Origin: Escherichia coli | GTDB taxonomy: Bacteria > Pseudomonadota > Gammaproteobacteria > Enterobacterales > Enterobacteriaceae | Assembly: GCF_001677475.2 (NCBI RefSeq) | Contig: NZ_CP015229.1 | Strand: one strand, 5' to 3' | DNA: 64,000 nucleotides | Shown here: in pieces, positions 9,717 to 64,000 of the stretch | Layout: every line of letters begins with the position of its first letter | Position numbering within the stretch: the stretch's first letter is position 1 | Program-made: the position numbers and the translations under genes | The notes under the pieces: model-generated | What the model was told of the DNA's origin: nothing | Seen by the model: the letters and a program-made list of their open reading frames with translations, nothing else | Database searches by the model: none

Positions 9717-9759
9717 CGTCCTGATGCTGGACGTTCTAATTTTTAGCATGTGATACCTA

Positions 9760-23955: not shown

Positions 23956-25395
23956 ATGTCAGTACCCGTTCAACATCCTATGTATATTGATGGACAGTTT
24001 GTTACCTGGCGTGGAGACGCATGGATTGATGTGGTAAACCCTGCTACTGAGGCTGTCATTTCCCGCATTCCCGATGGTCAGGCCGAGGATGCCCGTAAGG
24101 CAATCGATGCAGCAGAACGTGCACAACCAGAATGGGAAGCGTTGCCTGCTATTGAACGCGCCAGTTGGTTGCGCAAAATCTCCGCCGGGATCCGGGAACG
24201 TGCCAGTGAAATCAGTGCGCTGATTGTCGAAGAAGGGGGCAAGATCCAGCAGCTGGCTGAAGTTGAAGTGGCTTTTACTGCGGACTATATCGATTATATG
24301 GCGGAGTGGGCACGCCGTTATGAAGGCGAGATTATTCAAAGCGATCGTCCAGGAGAAAATATTCTTCTGTTTAAACGTGCGCTTGGCGTGACTACCGGCA
24401 TTCTGCCGTGGAACTTCCCGTTCTTCCTCATTGCACGCAAAATGGCTCCCGCTCTTTTGACCGGTAATACCATCGTCATTAAACCCAGTGAATTTACGCC
24501 AAACAATGCGATTGCATTCGCCAAAATCGTCGATGAAATAGGCCTTCCGCGCGGCGTGTTTAACCTTGTACTGGGGCGTGGTGAAACCGTTGGGCAAGAA
24601 CTGGCGGGTAACCCAAAGGTCGCAATGGTCAGTATGACAGGCAGCGTCTCTGCAGGTGAGAAGATCATGGCGACTGCGGCGAAAAACATCACCAAAGTGT
24701 GTCTGGAATTGGGTGGTAAAGCACCGGCTATCGTAATGGACGATGCCGATCTTGAACTGGCAGTCAAAGCCATCGTTGATTCACGCGTCATTAATAGTGG
24801 GCAAGTGTGTAACTGTGCAGAACGTGTTTATGTACAGAAAGGCATTTATGATCAGTTCGTCAATCGTCTGGGTGAAGCGATGCAGGCGGTTCAATTTGGT
24901 AACCCCGCTGAACGCAACGACATTGCGATGGGGCCGTTGATTAACGCCGCGGCGCTGGAAAGGGTTGAGCAAAAAGTAGCGCGCGCAGTAGAAGAAGGGG
25001 CGAGAGTGGGGTTGGGTGGCAAAGCGGTAGAGGGGAAAGGATATTATTATCCGCCGACATTGCTGTTGGATGTTCGCCAGGAAATGTCGATTATGCATGA
25101 GGAAACCTTTGGCCCGGTTCTGCCGGTGGTCGCATTTGACACGCTGGAAGATGCTATCTCAATGGCGAATGACAGTGATTACGGCCTGACCTCATCAATC
25201 TATACCCAAAATCTGAACGTCGCGATGAAAGCCATTAAAGGGCTGAAGTTTGGTGAAACTTACATCAACCGTGAAAACTTCGAAGCTATGCAAGGCTTCC
25301 ACGCCGGATGGCGTAAATCCGGTATTGGCGGCGCAGATGGTAAACATGGCCTGCATGAATATCTGCAGACCCAGGTGGTTTATTTACAGTCGTAA
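23956..25395 (+). CDS. aldA: Lactaldehyde dehydrogenase (NAD-dependent aldehyde dehydrogenase)
   Basis: Track ORF, 479 aa; ALDH catalytic motifs ELGGKAP and VCNCAERVY. Confidence 0.95.
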   Translation: MSVPVQHPMYIDGQFVTWRGDAWIDVVNPATEAVISRIPDGQAEDARKAIDAAERAQPEWEALPAIERASWLRKISAGIRERASEISALIVEEGGKIQQLAEVEVAFTADYIDYMAEWARRYEGEIIQSDRPGENILLFKRALGVTTGILPWNFPFFLIARKMAPALLTGNTIVIKPSEFTPNNAIAFAKIVDEIGLPRGVFNLVLGRGETVGQELAGNPKVAMVSMTGSVSAGEKIMATAAKNITKVCLELGGKAPAIVMDDADLELAVKAIVDSRVINSGQVCNCAERVYVQKGIYDQFVNRLGEAMQAVQFGNPAERNDIAMGPLINAAALERVEQKVARAVEEGARVGLGGKAVEGKGYYYPPTLLLDVRQEMSIMHEETFGPVLPVVAFDTLEDAISMANDSDYGLTSSIYTQNLNVAMKAIKGLKFGETYINRENFEAMQGFHAGWRKSGIGGADGKHGLHEYLQTQVVYLQS

Positions 25396-25405
25396 TGAGT
25401 GGAAG

Positions 25406-25429
25406 AGGCGGAGGTTTTTTCCTCCGCCT
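25406..25429. terminator. Bidirectional terminator between convergent aldA and gapC
   Basis: Stem AGGCGGAGG/CCTCCGCCT with T6 loop. Confidence 0.7.
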
Positions 25430-25436
25430 GTGTGCG

Positions 25437-26438
25437 TCAGAGTTTAGCGAATTTTTCGAGGGTGCGAATGAGCTGTGTGACGAAGCCATATTCGTTATCG
25501 TACCAGGCGACCGTTTTCACCAGTTGTAAATCGCCCACGGCGGTAATTTCCGTTTGCGTGGCATCAAACACCGAACCGAAATGGCTGCCAATGATATCGG
25601 AAGAGACTATTTCTTCATCGGTATAACCAAATGACTCGTTATTGTTTGTCGCCTTTTTAAGCGCGTTGTTCACCTCTTCGGCAGTCACTTTTTTTCCGAG
25701 AATCGACACCAGTTCAGTGACCGAACCTGTTTTCACCGGCACGCGTTGCGCATGACCTTTCAGTTTGCCGCTCAGTTCCGGGATCACCAGACCAATGGCT
25801 TTTGCCGCCCCCGTAGTGTGGGGAATGATATTTTCTGCCGCTGCGCGTGAAGCACGTAAATCTTTACCACGCGGGCCATCAACCAGTGACTGGGTGCCAG
25901 TGTAGGCATGAATGGTCGTCATCGTGCCGACTTCTATCCCGAAACTGTCATGCAAGGCTTTGGCCATCGGCGCAAGGCAGTTAGTGGTGCATGACGCCAC
26001 GGAAACAATAGTGTCGTTGCCATCCAGAGTGTCGTCATTGACGTTATAAACGATGGTTTTCATTTCACCGGCAGGGGCGGAAATCAACACCTTCTTCGCG
26101 CCAGCATCAAGATGTGCCTGCGATTTCTCGGCGGAGGTATAAAAGCCAGTACATTCGACAATGATTTCTGCACCTTTCGCTTTCCACGGAATATTTTTAG
26201 CCTCTTTTTCGGCGTAAACCGCGATGCTTTTTCCATCAACGATAAGTGAATCTTCCGTAAAATCAACGCTCCAGGGGAACGGTCCGTAGTTTGAATCATG
26301 TTTCAGCAGGTAGGCGAGAATTTTTGGGGAAGTGAGATCATTAATAGCGACAATGTCTATGTTGCTTTTGACTTCAAGTAATCGACGCAACACCAGTCGA
26401 CCGATACGACCAAAACCGTTAATACCAACTTTACTCAT
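25437..26438 (-). CDS. gapC: Glyceraldehyde-3-phosphate dehydrogenase (GapC-type), intact ORF
   Basis: Track ORF, 333 aa uninterrupted; GAPDH motifs INGFGRIGR and active-site SCTTNCLAP. Confidence 0.9.
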
Positions 26439-26626
26439 GGTCTTCTCCTGTCAGGAACGTTCGGATGAAAATTGATCCTTTCCAGGCTTAGACCAGGATG
26501 GCGGGATGGGCAATCTACATTCTTGCCGTGAAACGTAACGTACTGAAAATGGGTGAACAATATTTAATGAAATTTTAAGAAAAGCTCGTTATGTTAACAG
26601 CAAATTGTTTTAAAGCAGGAAATGTT

Positions 26627-27157
26627 ATGGAAAATAAATACTCTAGGTTACAAATCAGCATTCACTGGCTGGTCTTTTTGCTGGTTATCGCAGCGTATTG
26701 CGCAATGGAGTTTCGTGGTTTCTTCCCACGTAGCGATCGGCCGCTCATCAACATGATTCATGTTTCCTGTGGCATCACAATTCTCGTGCTGATGATGGTT
26801 CGTCTTTTGTTAAGGCTGAAATACCCAACCCCGCCGATTATACCTAAGCCAAAACCGATGATGACGGGACTGGCGCATTTGGGACATTTGGTGATCTATC
26901 TCCTGTTTATTGCGCTGCCAGTGATTGGTTTGGTGATGATGTATAACCGGGGTAACCCGTGGTTTGCGTTTGGTATAACGATGCCTTATGCATCAGAGGC
27001 CAATTTCGAACGGGTTGATAGCTTAAAGTCGTGGCATGAAACGCTGGCGAATCTGGGATACTTTGTCATCGGGTTGCACGCTGCGGCTGCACTGGCACAC
27101 CACTATTTCTGGAAGGACAACACACTTCTACGCATGATGCCGCGTAAACGTTCCTGA
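26627..27157 (+). CDS. cybB: Cytochrome b561
   Basis: Start at ATG 26627 (MENKYSRLQISIHW) with AGGA RBS, inside track ORF 26591..27157; 176 aa; membrane haem protein. Confidence 0.9.
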   Translation: MENKYSRLQISIHWLVFLLVIAAYCAMEFRGFFPRSDRPLINMIHVSCGITILVLMMVRLLLRLKYPTPPIIPKPKPMMTGLAHLGHLVIYLLFIALPVIGLVMMYNRGNPWFAFGITMPYASEANFERVDSLKSWHETLANLGYFVIGLHAAAALAHHYFWKDNTLLRMMPRKRS

Positions 27158-27166
27158 AGGATATTT

Positions 27167-27231
27167 AAAGAAAACGCCTGTACTAAAACCGACCCGTGGT
27201 ACAGGCGAAGAATACGGGCCTACATCGGAAG
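27167..27231 (-). ncRNA. rydC: Small regulatory RNA RydC
   Basis: Minus-strand sequence CTTCCGATGTAGGCCCGTATTCTTCGCCTGTACCACGGGTCGGTTTTAGTACAGGCGTTTTCTTT matches remembered RydC; in the cybB-ydcA intergenic region; terminator hairpin plus U-tract. Confidence 0.75.
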
Positions 27232-27646: not shown

Positions 27647-27843
<197 letters not shown>

Positions 27844-27854
<11 letters not shown>

Positions 27855-27900
27855 TCGTTGGCCTCGGTTGATAGAAATATCGGTCGGGGCCTTCGTCTTT
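27844..27900 (+). ncRNA. sokB: Predicted SokB antisense RNA (antitoxin of hokB); boundaries approximate
   Basis: Plus-strand promoter-like TTGCCG (27808-27813), 17-bp spacer, TAAGAT (27831-27836) inside mokB, transcribing antisense across the mokB start; imperfect hairpin then U-rich tract near 27859-27900. Confidence 0.4.
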
Positions 27901-28128
27901 CTGATTCCCGGTTAGCCTGAAAACAGAAAGTCTCAGGCACCCGTGAGCATCCTATGTGGTTTCCTTAGGGACGAAAATAATCACCTGACGAAATTGCGTG
28001 CTGTTTTCCAGAATTTTTCGTTATTCGGTTTAGCCAGTTTAATCATTCGTTACTCTCTTCATTCCAATGGCATTAATCTTCTCTGCAATAATTGTTGTAA
28101 AAATGTGACGCAAAGAGGTTTTTGGTCG

Positions 28129-38859: not shown

Positions 38860-38887
38860 GCGCCGTCGTTAGATGGCGCTTTTTATT
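38860..38887. terminator. Bidirectional terminator between convergent ydcL and ydcO
   Basis: 8-bp stem GCGCCGTC/GATGGCGC (one G-U pair) then T-run. Confidence 0.55.
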
Positions 38888-60882: not shown

Positions 60883-61013
60883 ATGTCATTAAGGAGAATG
60901 ACATCTGGTGAATTAACATTGGCCAGATCGATTTTTGAGAATACAATTGATTATAGCAAGGTATGGATCCACAATGAAAAATATTTGCCTGGTCAAGGGG
61001 AAAGAACAGCGAT
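60883..61013 (+). pseudogene. 5' fragment of a host ORF interrupted by the prophage insertion
   Basis: ATG 60883 with GGAAGGA RBS; MSLRRMTSGELTLARSIFENTIDYSKVWIHNEKYLPGQGERTAI then reads straight into the Mu-type end at 61014 (track ORF 60844..61083 is the chimera). Confidence 0.4.
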
Positions 61014-61190
61014 TGTATTGATTCACTTGAAGTACGAAAAAAACCGGGAGGACATTGGATTATTCGGGATTTGGCGGGATTAGATTTAGTGGGGCTTGCA
61101 AGCCTGTAGGACAGATTTTAGCCGTTACATCTTGAAACGCGAAAGATTGTTGGAAACAGCTTTTGATTCATTAAAGACACGAAAAGCAAT
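61014..61190 (+). repeat. Prophage attL with transposase end-binding sites L1, L2 and L3
   Basis: L1 about 61019-61040 (TGATTCACTTGAAGTACGAAAA), L2 about 61128-61147 (CTTGAAACGCGAAAGA), L3 about 61164-61186 (TGATTCATTAAAGACACGAAAAG); terminal 5'-TG. Confidence 0.8.
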
Positions 61191-61352
61191 TACTTCACGC
61201 ATCATTTCAAGTACAGCTTCAAAAATGCTTCAAAAACGGTAACAACCAGGCTTTCGGCAAGTGATGTGTGTCAAAAACAATCATCACTGTTTGGGTATCT
61301 TACATATGTAATTACCTAGAGTGAAGTTTATGTCTTAGCTATTACCTGGTTG

Positions 61353-61877
61353 TTATACAGCTTTCTTTACATCGTTTTCTCTTACAGGGAAATTATGTTC
61401 TTTGCCTTCATACTGAGACAAAATCTCTCTCACTTTTTCAGGTGGTAATGCCTGAAGAGTTTGCAGGGTTTTCTGTTGATCCACAGTAATCCCTAATGCC
61501 TCTAATGCCTTATCTTTACTGACAATTGTAGGCATAAGTCCTTTAATCCCTGCTACACGAATGATCTCCACAGCTGCGGCCTGCTCATCTGGTGTTAAGA
61601 AGCTCATTGCATAAATTAGCCTCTCATCAACTGTATGGGCGATTGATGTATGCACTGGTTTATCAGAAAGTGAGGCTCCTTTAATGGCCCTACGTGTTTC
61701 TTCTGGCAGACTGTTGATGTGATACTCATAAGCGACACCTTTCCCACCGTGACGCTGACGTTTTACCCAATCTTCCGCCACAGCTTTCCTGGTAATGTTA
61801 GTCGCCAACTTTGGTACACCAGGCATCCCTTCCAGCTCTTTCGCATTAAACCATTCTTTGATTTCAAAAGACATCAT
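61353..61877 (-). CDS. c: Mu-type lysogeny repressor (174 aa)
   Basis: Track ORF; C-terminus ...NDVKKAV resembles Mu repressor ...QEVKKAV; N-terminal region resembles the transposase N-terminus; leftward orientation as in Mu. Confidence 0.85.
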   Translation of the reverse strand: MMSFEIKEWFNAKELEGMPGVPKLATNITRKAVAEDWVKRQRHGGKGVAYEYHINSLPEETRRAIKGASLSDKPVHTSIAHTVDERLIYAMSFLTPDEQAAAVEIIRVAGIKGLMPTIVSKDKALEALGITVDQQKTLQTLQALPPEKVREILSQYEGKEHNFPVRENDVKKAV

Positions 61878-62057
61878 TTAAAATCCTAGCGATTTCAATA
61901 GAGACAAAATAAATTCATATAAAAATCATGCCGTTATATGAAATCATGGTAAATACTTTCAAATCTCTATTGATTTGAAAATGATTCCACACTACATTGC
62001 ACGATATGCCGTGAGCTACTTTATAGCGTAGCTCACGGGGGAATCTGAAAGGATTAC
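61878..62057. promoter_or_regulatory. Prophage early control region (operators, divergent promoters, transposition enhancer) by position
   Basis: Intergenic AT-rich region between divergent repressor and ner; individual operators not resolved by eye. Confidence 0.5.
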
Positions 62058-62062
62058 ATGAA

Positions 62063-62284
62063 ATGCATATGAATAAAAGAACTAACCGCCAAGATTGGCA
62101 CAGAGCTGACATCGTTGCAGAGCTACGAAAACGCAATATGTCACTAGCTGAATTGGGAAGATCTAATCATCTTTCGTCTTCAACATTAAAAAATGCTTTG
62201 GATAAGAGATATCCGAAAGCGGAGAAAATCATTGCAGATGCACTGGGAATGACACCGCAAGATATTTGGCCGTCTCGATACTAG
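62063..62284 (+). CDS. ner: Ner-like DNA-binding regulator of early transcription (73 aa)
   Basis: Track ORF; [33 protein letters not shown]... resembles Mu Ner (...DWHRADVIAGLKKRKLSLSALSR...); AAGGA RBS. Confidence 0.85.
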
Positions 62285-62291
62285 GTGCGCT

Positions 62292-64000
62292 ATGAAAGAA
62301 TGGTATACAGCAAAAGAGTTGCTCGGTTTGGCAGGTTTACCAAAGCAAGCCACTAACATTACACGTAAGGCACAAAGAGAAGGCTGGGAGTTCAGGCAGG
62401 TTGCAGGGACTAAAGGTGTATCATTTGAATTCAATATCAAATCATTCCCTGTCGCATTACGTGCTGAAATTCTGTTGCAACAAGGGAGAATTGAAACAAG
62501 CCAGGGGTATTTTGAAATCGCCCGCCCCACGCTGGAAGCCCACGATTACGATCGCGGGGCACTGTGGAGCAAATGGGATAAAGCCAGCGATTCCCAGCGC
62601 AGACTTGCTGAAAAATGGTTGCCTGCAGTTCAGGCCGCAGACGAAATGCTGAACCAGGGGATTTCAACAAAAACGGCTTTTGCGACCGTTGCAGGACATT
62701 ACCAGGTCAGCGCATCCACTTTGCGAGACAAGTATTACCAGGTACAGAAGTTTGCGAAGCCTGACTGGGCGGCTGCACTTGTTGATGGACGTGGTGCATC
62801 TCGTCGCAATGTTCACAAAAGTGAATTTGACGAGGATGCCTGGCAGTTTCTGATTGCAGATTATCTGCGACCGGAAAAACCCGCCTTCCGCAAATGTTAT
62901 GAGCGTCTGGAACTGGCAGCCCGCGAGCATGGCTGGAGTATTCCCTCCCGTGCCACGGCCTTTCGCCGGATTCAGCAACTGGACGAGGCAATGGTTGTTG
63001 CCTGTCGTGAAGGTGAACATGCACTGATGCATCTGATACCGGCACAGCAGCGAACTGTGGAACACCTGGACGCCATGCAGTGGATCAACGGCGACGGTTA
63101 TCTGCATAACGTCTTTGTACGCTGGTTTAACGGTGATGTGATCCGCCCGAAAACATGGTTCTGGCAGGATGTGAAAACCCGAAAAATTCTGGGCTGGCGC
63201 TGCGATGTGAGCGAGAACATTGATTCAATTCGCCTCTCGTTCATGGATGTGGTGACACGCTACGGCATCCCGGAAGATTTTCACATCACCATTGATAACA
63301 CCCGTGGGGCAGCGAATAAATGGCTGACGGGGGGCGCGCCCAATCGTTACCGCTTTAAGGTGAAAGAGGACGATCCAAAGGGACTGTTTTTACTGATGGG
63401 CGCGAAAATGCACTGGACAAGCGTTGTTGCCGGTAAAGGCTGGGGCCAGGCAAAACCTGTTGAACGTGCTTTCGGTGTTGGTGGGCTTGAGGAATACGTT
63501 GATAAGCATCCGGCACTGGCTGGCGCATATACGGGGCCAAATCCGCAGGCAAAACCTGATAACTATGGCGACCGTGCTGTTGATGCAGAGCTGTTTCTGA
63601 AAACCCTTGCTGAAGGTGTGGCGATGTTCAATGCCAGAACAGGCCGTGAAACAGAAATGTGCGGGGGCAAACTCTCGTTTGATGATGTTTTCGAGCGTGA
63701 ATACGCCAGAACGATTGTGCGTAAGCCAACCGAAGAACAAAAACGGATGCTGTTACTGCCTGCCGAAGCGGTGAACGTTTCACGCAAAGGCGAGTTTACG
63801 CTTAAAGTTGGCGGCTCCCTTAAAGGCGCGAAAAACGTTTATTACAACATGGCGTTAATGAATGCAGGCGTGAAAAAAGTTGTGGTCAGGTTTGATCCGC
63901 AGCAGCTACACAGCACAGTTTATTGCTACACCCTGGACGGTCGGTTTATCTGTGAAGCGGAATGTCTGGCACCTGTTGCATTTAATGATGCTGCGGCAGG
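62292..64000 (+). CDS. A: MuA-type DDE transposase, N-terminal ~569 codons (3' end outside window)
   Basis: Not in ORF track because there is no stop before the window end; hand translation [32 protein letters not shown]... with DDE residues at codons 268 (INGDGY), 335 (ITIDNTRG) and 391 (PVERAF). Confidence 0.9.

Follow-up and report, generated by a model that had tools for sequence, protein, structure and literature searches.

An intact gapC allele very probably encodes a functional second GAPDH in Escherichia coli

In E. coli K-12, gapC is the annotated pseudogene b4493 (1001 nt; formerly gapC_1 b1417 and gapC_2 b1416), as a preliminary description of the sequence presented here had correctly stated. 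The gene raises the question of whether its counterpart on the window, the 64,000-nt stretch of E. coli DNA analysed here, is a relic of the same kind or encodes a working enzyme. We hold with high confidence that the open reading frame is an intact gapC allele and that its product is a functional homotetrameric, NAD+-dependent, phosphorylating type I GAPDH (EC 1.2.1.12). GapC is a second true GAPDH beside GapA; Epd (GapB) is the third E. coli GAPDH paralogue and uses another substrate.

The ORF listing and direct reading of the sequence both gave a single open frame on the minus strand (25437..26438) with an ATG start, 333 codons and a TGA stop, in agreement with the position and length previously assigned to an uninterrupted gapC. 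The ORF listing contained no in-frame extension upstream of the ATG. The gene and the codons discussed below are located as follows.

25437..26438, minus strand: gapC open reading frame of 333 codons and TGA, for an intact NAD-dependent type I GAPDH (ORF, Pfam, TIGR01534, PDB match)
25989..25991, minus strand: codon TGC of the catalytic Cys150, inside SCTTNC (motif; C150 is essential in a near-identical enzyme, PMC8615399)
25908..25910, minus strand: codon of His177, the catalytic base (motif IHAYT; H177A data from a near-identical enzyme, PMC8615399)
26322..26324, minus strand: codon 39, AAA (Lys), which is TAA in K-12 (alignment to K-12)
25689..25695, minus strand: A7 homopolymer, gene nt 744-750, codons G248-K249-K250, which is A6 in K-12 (alignments)

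Membership in the type I GAPDHs was defined by TIGR01534 and by Pfam PF00044 and PF02800. Both Pfam domains are full length, with Gp_dh_N covering residues 3-102 (model 2-100 of 101, E = 2.9e-35) and Gp_dh_C residues 155-313 (model 1-158 of 158, E = 6.9e-58), and E-values of this order on a 333-codon open frame exclude a chance ORF. Motif searches located NGFGRIGR at residues 7-14, where GxGxxG reads G8-x-G10-x-x-G13, INDL at residues 32-35 (including Asp34), SCTTNC at 149-154 (including Cys150), IHAYT at 176-180 (including His177), and WYDNEYG at 312-318. The NAD-binding motif and the catalytic cysteine region, both of which had been described as retained, were thus found in place together with His177 and Asp34. 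Alignment with the housekeeping enzyme GapA of K-12 (b1779), which is encoded at a different locus, gave 47% identity and matched C150, H177, G8/G10/G13, and D34 to the equivalent GapA residues. GapA and GapC have the same fold, the two Pfam domains, the catalytic Cys and His, and Asp34 in common, and both score above the TIGR01534 cut-off. They are separated by the model PRK15425, on which GapA reaches 772 bits against a cut-off of 662 and GapC only 302.

The window allele and K-12 b4493 are 97.7% identical at the nucleotide level and agree in their flanking genes and in the 41-nt spacer that separates gapC from aldA. Two lesions interrupt the K-12 gene. The substitution A115T turns K39 (AAA) into TAA, where the window keeps AAA, and the loss of 1 nt from the A7 run yields GGA AAA AAG TGA, with a stop right after K250. 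K-12 gapC additionally carries R18G, which is absent from the window. Judged by the two marks of the K-12-type pseudogene, TAA at codon 39 and A6 at nt 744-750, window gapC has neither, and the possibility raised beforehand that it might be identical to the pseudogene was dispelled by this alignment. The other reservation in the preliminary description, an overlooked frameshift or stop, was checked in two independent assemblies (GCA_018682865.1 and Logan SRR22006506). Both belong to the lineage of the window and carry gapC with 100% nucleotide identity, which rules out a sequencing error as the source of the open frame.

Over its full length the window aligns collinearly with K-12 positions 1,455,346-1,526,156 at 97.1-97.6% identity. 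Among 5426 complete RefSeq E. coli genomes, the nearest is at most 98.5% identical in gapC and about 97.2-97.5% identical over 12-24 kb. We considered an altered or synthetic window, given that no complete genome exceeded 98.5%, and ruled this out with the two public assemblies named above (JAGEVW010000017.1 in the case of GCA_018682865.1), which are 99.994-100% identical over ~16 kb. A 30-mer with two SNPs private to the window had no hits among the GTDB species representatives, but the exact HrpA, AldA, Trg, and OpgD sequences of the window occur one after another (ANO88809, ANO88811, ANO88816, and neighbours) in a 5,498,453-bp E. coli record. Judged from these matches, the window comes from a genuine E. 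coli lineage, not from another species, that is rare and that the complete genomes do not include.

gapC is flanked by the convergent aldA and the divergent cybB, in the same order as in K-12 MG1655 and in every related locus compared, and this context fixes its orthology with the K-12 gapC locus. The flanking genes and the candidate control signals are the following.

23956..25395, plus strand: aldA, aldehyde dehydrogenase A (ORF; K-12 annotation; exact protein named aldehyde dehydrogenase of E. coli)
26627..27157, plus strand: cybB, cytochrome b561 / superoxide oxidase (ORF; K-12 annotation; Pfam Ni_hydr_CYTB in related loci)
26445..26449, minus strand: Shine-Dalgarno sequence AGGAG, 6 nt 5' of the ATG (direct reading; invariant in 11 alleles)
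26439..26626, minus strand: gapC-cybB divergent intergenic region, presumed promoter/control region (alignment; promoter function from literature only, PMC2949598)
25406..25429, no strand assigned: 9-bp GC-rich hairpin separating the stop codons of aldA and gapC (RNA fold)

The 188-nt gapC-cybB intergenic region has a mean column identity of 98% across 11 alleles, intact and pseudogene, and is conserved more tightly than the synonymous sites of gapC (mean dS 0.084). Putative regulatory signals for gapC, cybB, or both may account for this constraint. A consensus scan of positions 25200-26800 found no sigma-70 promoter upstream of gapC. On the other side of the gene, the hairpin occupies the 41-nt spacer and is unusually stable (-18.1 kcal/mol, z = -5.15, none of 200 shuffles as stable). 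It has a weak T-run and was not called by a terminator scan of the same 25200-26800 interval; it is probably a bidirectional terminator common to both genes. gapC possesses its own Shine-Dalgarno sequence and has the conserved upstream region in common with cybB and the hairpin in common with aldA. Going by the literature, it would be expressed conditionally, preferentially in fresh water, and not as a housekeeping glycolytic enzyme.

The neighbourhood offered some further observations. Logan SRR22006506, from a close relative of the window strain, has a 115-bp deletion in aldA (window 24843-24957) that leaves ORFs of 300 and 129 aa, and strain 2013C-4361 has a frameshifted aldA beside an intact gapC. 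Rfam models located the RydC sRNA just past cybB (27168-27231, minus strand, 90.5 bits) and the sok antitoxin RNA further on (sokB of hokB/sokB; 27791-27942, minus strand, 109.7 bits), both as in K-12.

In the PDB, window GapC matches 7C5F and its related entries best (E = 3.6e-218). These structures (7C5F, 7C5G, 7C5H, 7C7K, and related entries) are of 'EcGAPDH1', which corresponds to GapC of BL21(DE3) (WP_000048667.1); this sequence identity suggests that the crystallised gene was taken from BL21. The window and BL21 proteins are of the same length, are identical at 330 of 333 residues, and share all catalytic and NAD-binding residues. The three exceptions, I29, K262, and N265 in the window for V, Q, and T in BL21, are conservative, surface-type substitutions. 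At the nucleotide level the two genes have 24 differences, and both lie in the order aldA-gapC-cybB. The BL21-type enzyme has been crystallised with NAD and G3P and forms NADH from G3P with a KM of 0.73 mM for G3P. Its activity is abolished by C150A and drops ~8000-fold in H177A and ~38000-fold in C150S (PMC8615399).

By analogy, Cys150 of the window enzyme, activated by His177, would attack the aldehyde of D-glyceraldehyde-3-phosphate. The resulting thiohemiacetal would pass a hydride to NAD+, held by the N-terminal Rossmann fold through G8-x-G10-x-x-G13 and Asp34, and the thioacyl enzyme would then be phosphorolysed to 1,3-bisphosphoglycerate. This mechanism was shown for a 99.1% identical protein and is expected to hold for the window allele. 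Synthetic-methylotroph work provides in vivo evidence: BL21 gapC took the place of gapA in an engineered strain that grew (PMC11611044), and PMC11471845 lists the protein as GapC (BL21). In vivo, an intact gapC is thus able to supply the cell's sole GAPDH. BL21(DE3) itself harbours an IS1A element between gapC and cybB (NC_012971.2, 1444168-1444865), an insertion that the window lacks. The element lies within the presumed gapC control region and may alter native gapC expression in that strain.

gapC was found in 5417 of the 5426 complete E. coli genomes, and the window allele is 96-98.5% identical to the 'gap' of 5409 genomes. In an evenly spaced sample of 20 complete genomes, drawn as every other row of an evenly spaced list of gapC matches, PGAP annotates the gene as intact in 15 and as a pseudogene in five. 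Searches with exact K-12 57-mers, which give lower bounds, recovered the K39 stop allele in at least 1152 and the A6 frameshift allele in at least 1046 of the 5426 genomes. At least two independent series of lesions have removed functional gapC from roughly one in four complete E. coli genomes, and the gene is thus dispensable in some niches. Comparison of the alleles shows recurrent loss, with at least two independent losses and subsequent stepwise decay. The K-12 state is a derived loss in a minority of E. coli, and the window represents the majority, ancestral intact state. Individual strains carry different combinations of lesions: TB354 has the K39 stop only, K-12, YJ4, and Z1323CEC0003 have the K39 stop and the A-run frameshift, and 19213 has both together with an inserted T near nt 101. 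CUPS SST 5/1 has an unrelated, independent 1-nt deletion near nt 206-208. Public databases already contain the exact 333-aa window protein on 718 contigs, under the name type I GAPDH of E. coli, and 4797 members make up the cluster into which it falls at 90% identity.

Intact, active gapC outside K-12 is already known from literature since 1998, crystal structures, and routine PGAP annotation. Papers that cite Espinosa-Urgel & Kolter (1998) describe gapC as unbroken in isolates from the environment but mutated in laboratory strains, and report preferential expression in fresh water (PMC2949598, PMC1796617) and environment-specific promoter activity (PMC2949598), as opposed to GapA, which is constitutive and highly abundant (PMC6312284). 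Of the two enzymes, that O157 proteome paper covers GapA alone, with no mention of GapC (PMC6312284). The 'GAPC' of PMC5610209 is the plant cytosolic enzyme and irrelevant here.

Two other accounts of the gene deserve weighing. GapC might be a member of the GAPDH family that works on another substrate or cofactor (erythrose 4-phosphate as in Epd, an arsenate-linked reaction, or NADP) and not a second glycolytic GAPDH. The modest identity of 47% to GapA is compatible with this, as is the fact that E. coli already possesses a diverged paralogue in Epd, and PMC3080795 files gapC under EC 1.2.1.9, the non-phosphorylating NADP enzyme. The family models speak for the glycolytic reaction instead, as GapC obtains 447 bits on the type I GAPDH equivalog TIGR01534 (NCBIfam), above the cut-off of 367.2, but misses by a wide margin the thresholds set for the erythrose-4-phosphate dehydrogenase models TIGR01532 (277 against 530.55 bits) and NF010058 (280 against 539 bits) and for the ArsJ-associated GAPDH model NF033735 (307 against 450 bits). 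The locus has no arsJ neighbour, and an Asp at the end of beta-2, here Asp34, is tied to NAD specificity in GAPDH enzymology. An enzyme only three residues away was crystallised with NAD and G3P and was measured to form NADH from G3P (PMC8615399). We regard a different substrate or cofactor as exceedingly improbable.

Alternatively, gapC might be intact but physiologically silent, a cryptic gene that has not yet been disabled and makes no fitness contribution in this lineage. Such a state would fit the recurrence of loss seen in the K39 stop and A6 frameshift counts, the independent deletion in CUPS SST 5/1, the further decay in 19213, and the failure of the scan of 25200-26800 to find a consensus sigma-70 promoter. 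The pattern of substitution points the other way. Across 16 intact alleles, picked by DNA rank only, dN/dS is 0.047 (mean dS 0.084, mean dN 0.0039), 71 of 86 polymorphic sites are third codon positions, and none of the 13 variable residues falls in a catalytic or cofactor motif. Neutral drift over this synonymous divergence would have produced many amino-acid changes and stops. The ratio means that purifying selection is strong, and it cannot be reconciled with a silent relic. The upstream region and Shine-Dalgarno sequence are 98% conserved, environment-specific promoter activity is reported in PMC2949598, and gapC_1 is listed in a table of K-12 regulated genes (PMC4512719). A silent gapC is therefore very unlikely in our view. 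Alleles that encode the identical protein have 22-32 synonymous nucleotide differences from the window, almost all of them at third positions; dN = 0 among these loci (L002-L007) was dropped as evidence of selection because they had been retrieved by exact protein. The suggestion in the preliminary description that gapC may here encode a functional second GAPDH gains support from the dN/dS of the intact alleles, the TIGR01534 score, and the active BL21 protein, and the window allele is very probably a functional GAPDH isozyme.

The repeated loss, through at least two independent lesion series that affect about a quarter of complete genomes, leads us to a more tentative proposal on the role of this functional GapC, which we consider possible but rather doubtful. 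GapC could be a niche-specific isozyme that the cell employs outside the host (in fresh water, at low temperature, or during starvation) at a flux below that of GapA, and its repeated loss could be adaptive or mark an ecological shift, and not reflect neutral decay. That recurrent gapC loss tracks ecology is plausible. If the proposal were true, lifestyle could be read from the state of gapC in a genome, and the rare lineage of the window would retain an environmental phase. For annotation, the gene should be named as a functional type I GAPDH (gapC) and not as a pseudogene carried over from K-12, which is the exception at this locus. The lesion series show that a gene which purifying selection otherwise strongly maintains has been lost repeatedly and in steps. 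The lesions could be mapped on a phylogeny to ask when, and in which niches, a second GAPDH becomes dispensable.

Elsewhere in the window, three sites depart from the K-12 gene order. At 9718-9730, an 8.9-kb K-12 segment (1465063-1474004; ydbA autotransporter pseudogene, IS2D, IS30C) is missing, and paaY and pdxI (ydbC) are separated by a short junction. At 38886-38887, IS609 (insQ/yncK; K-12 1503161-1504908) is missing, which leaves a clean ydcL/ydcO junction. From ~61004 to 64000, the K-12 genes yncG and yncH, 3' of ansP, are replaced by other sequence that is 98-99% identical to an element present at many chromosomal sites in 859 genomes and annotated as MerR-family regulator, HTH protein, or transposase. 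By its sequence, this segment is apparently the left-hand end of a transposable, Mu-like prophage that runs off the window end, with two ORFs recognised in it.

61353-61877, minus strand: repressor-like ORF of the Mu-like element
62063-62284, plus strand: Ner-like ORF of the Mu-like element
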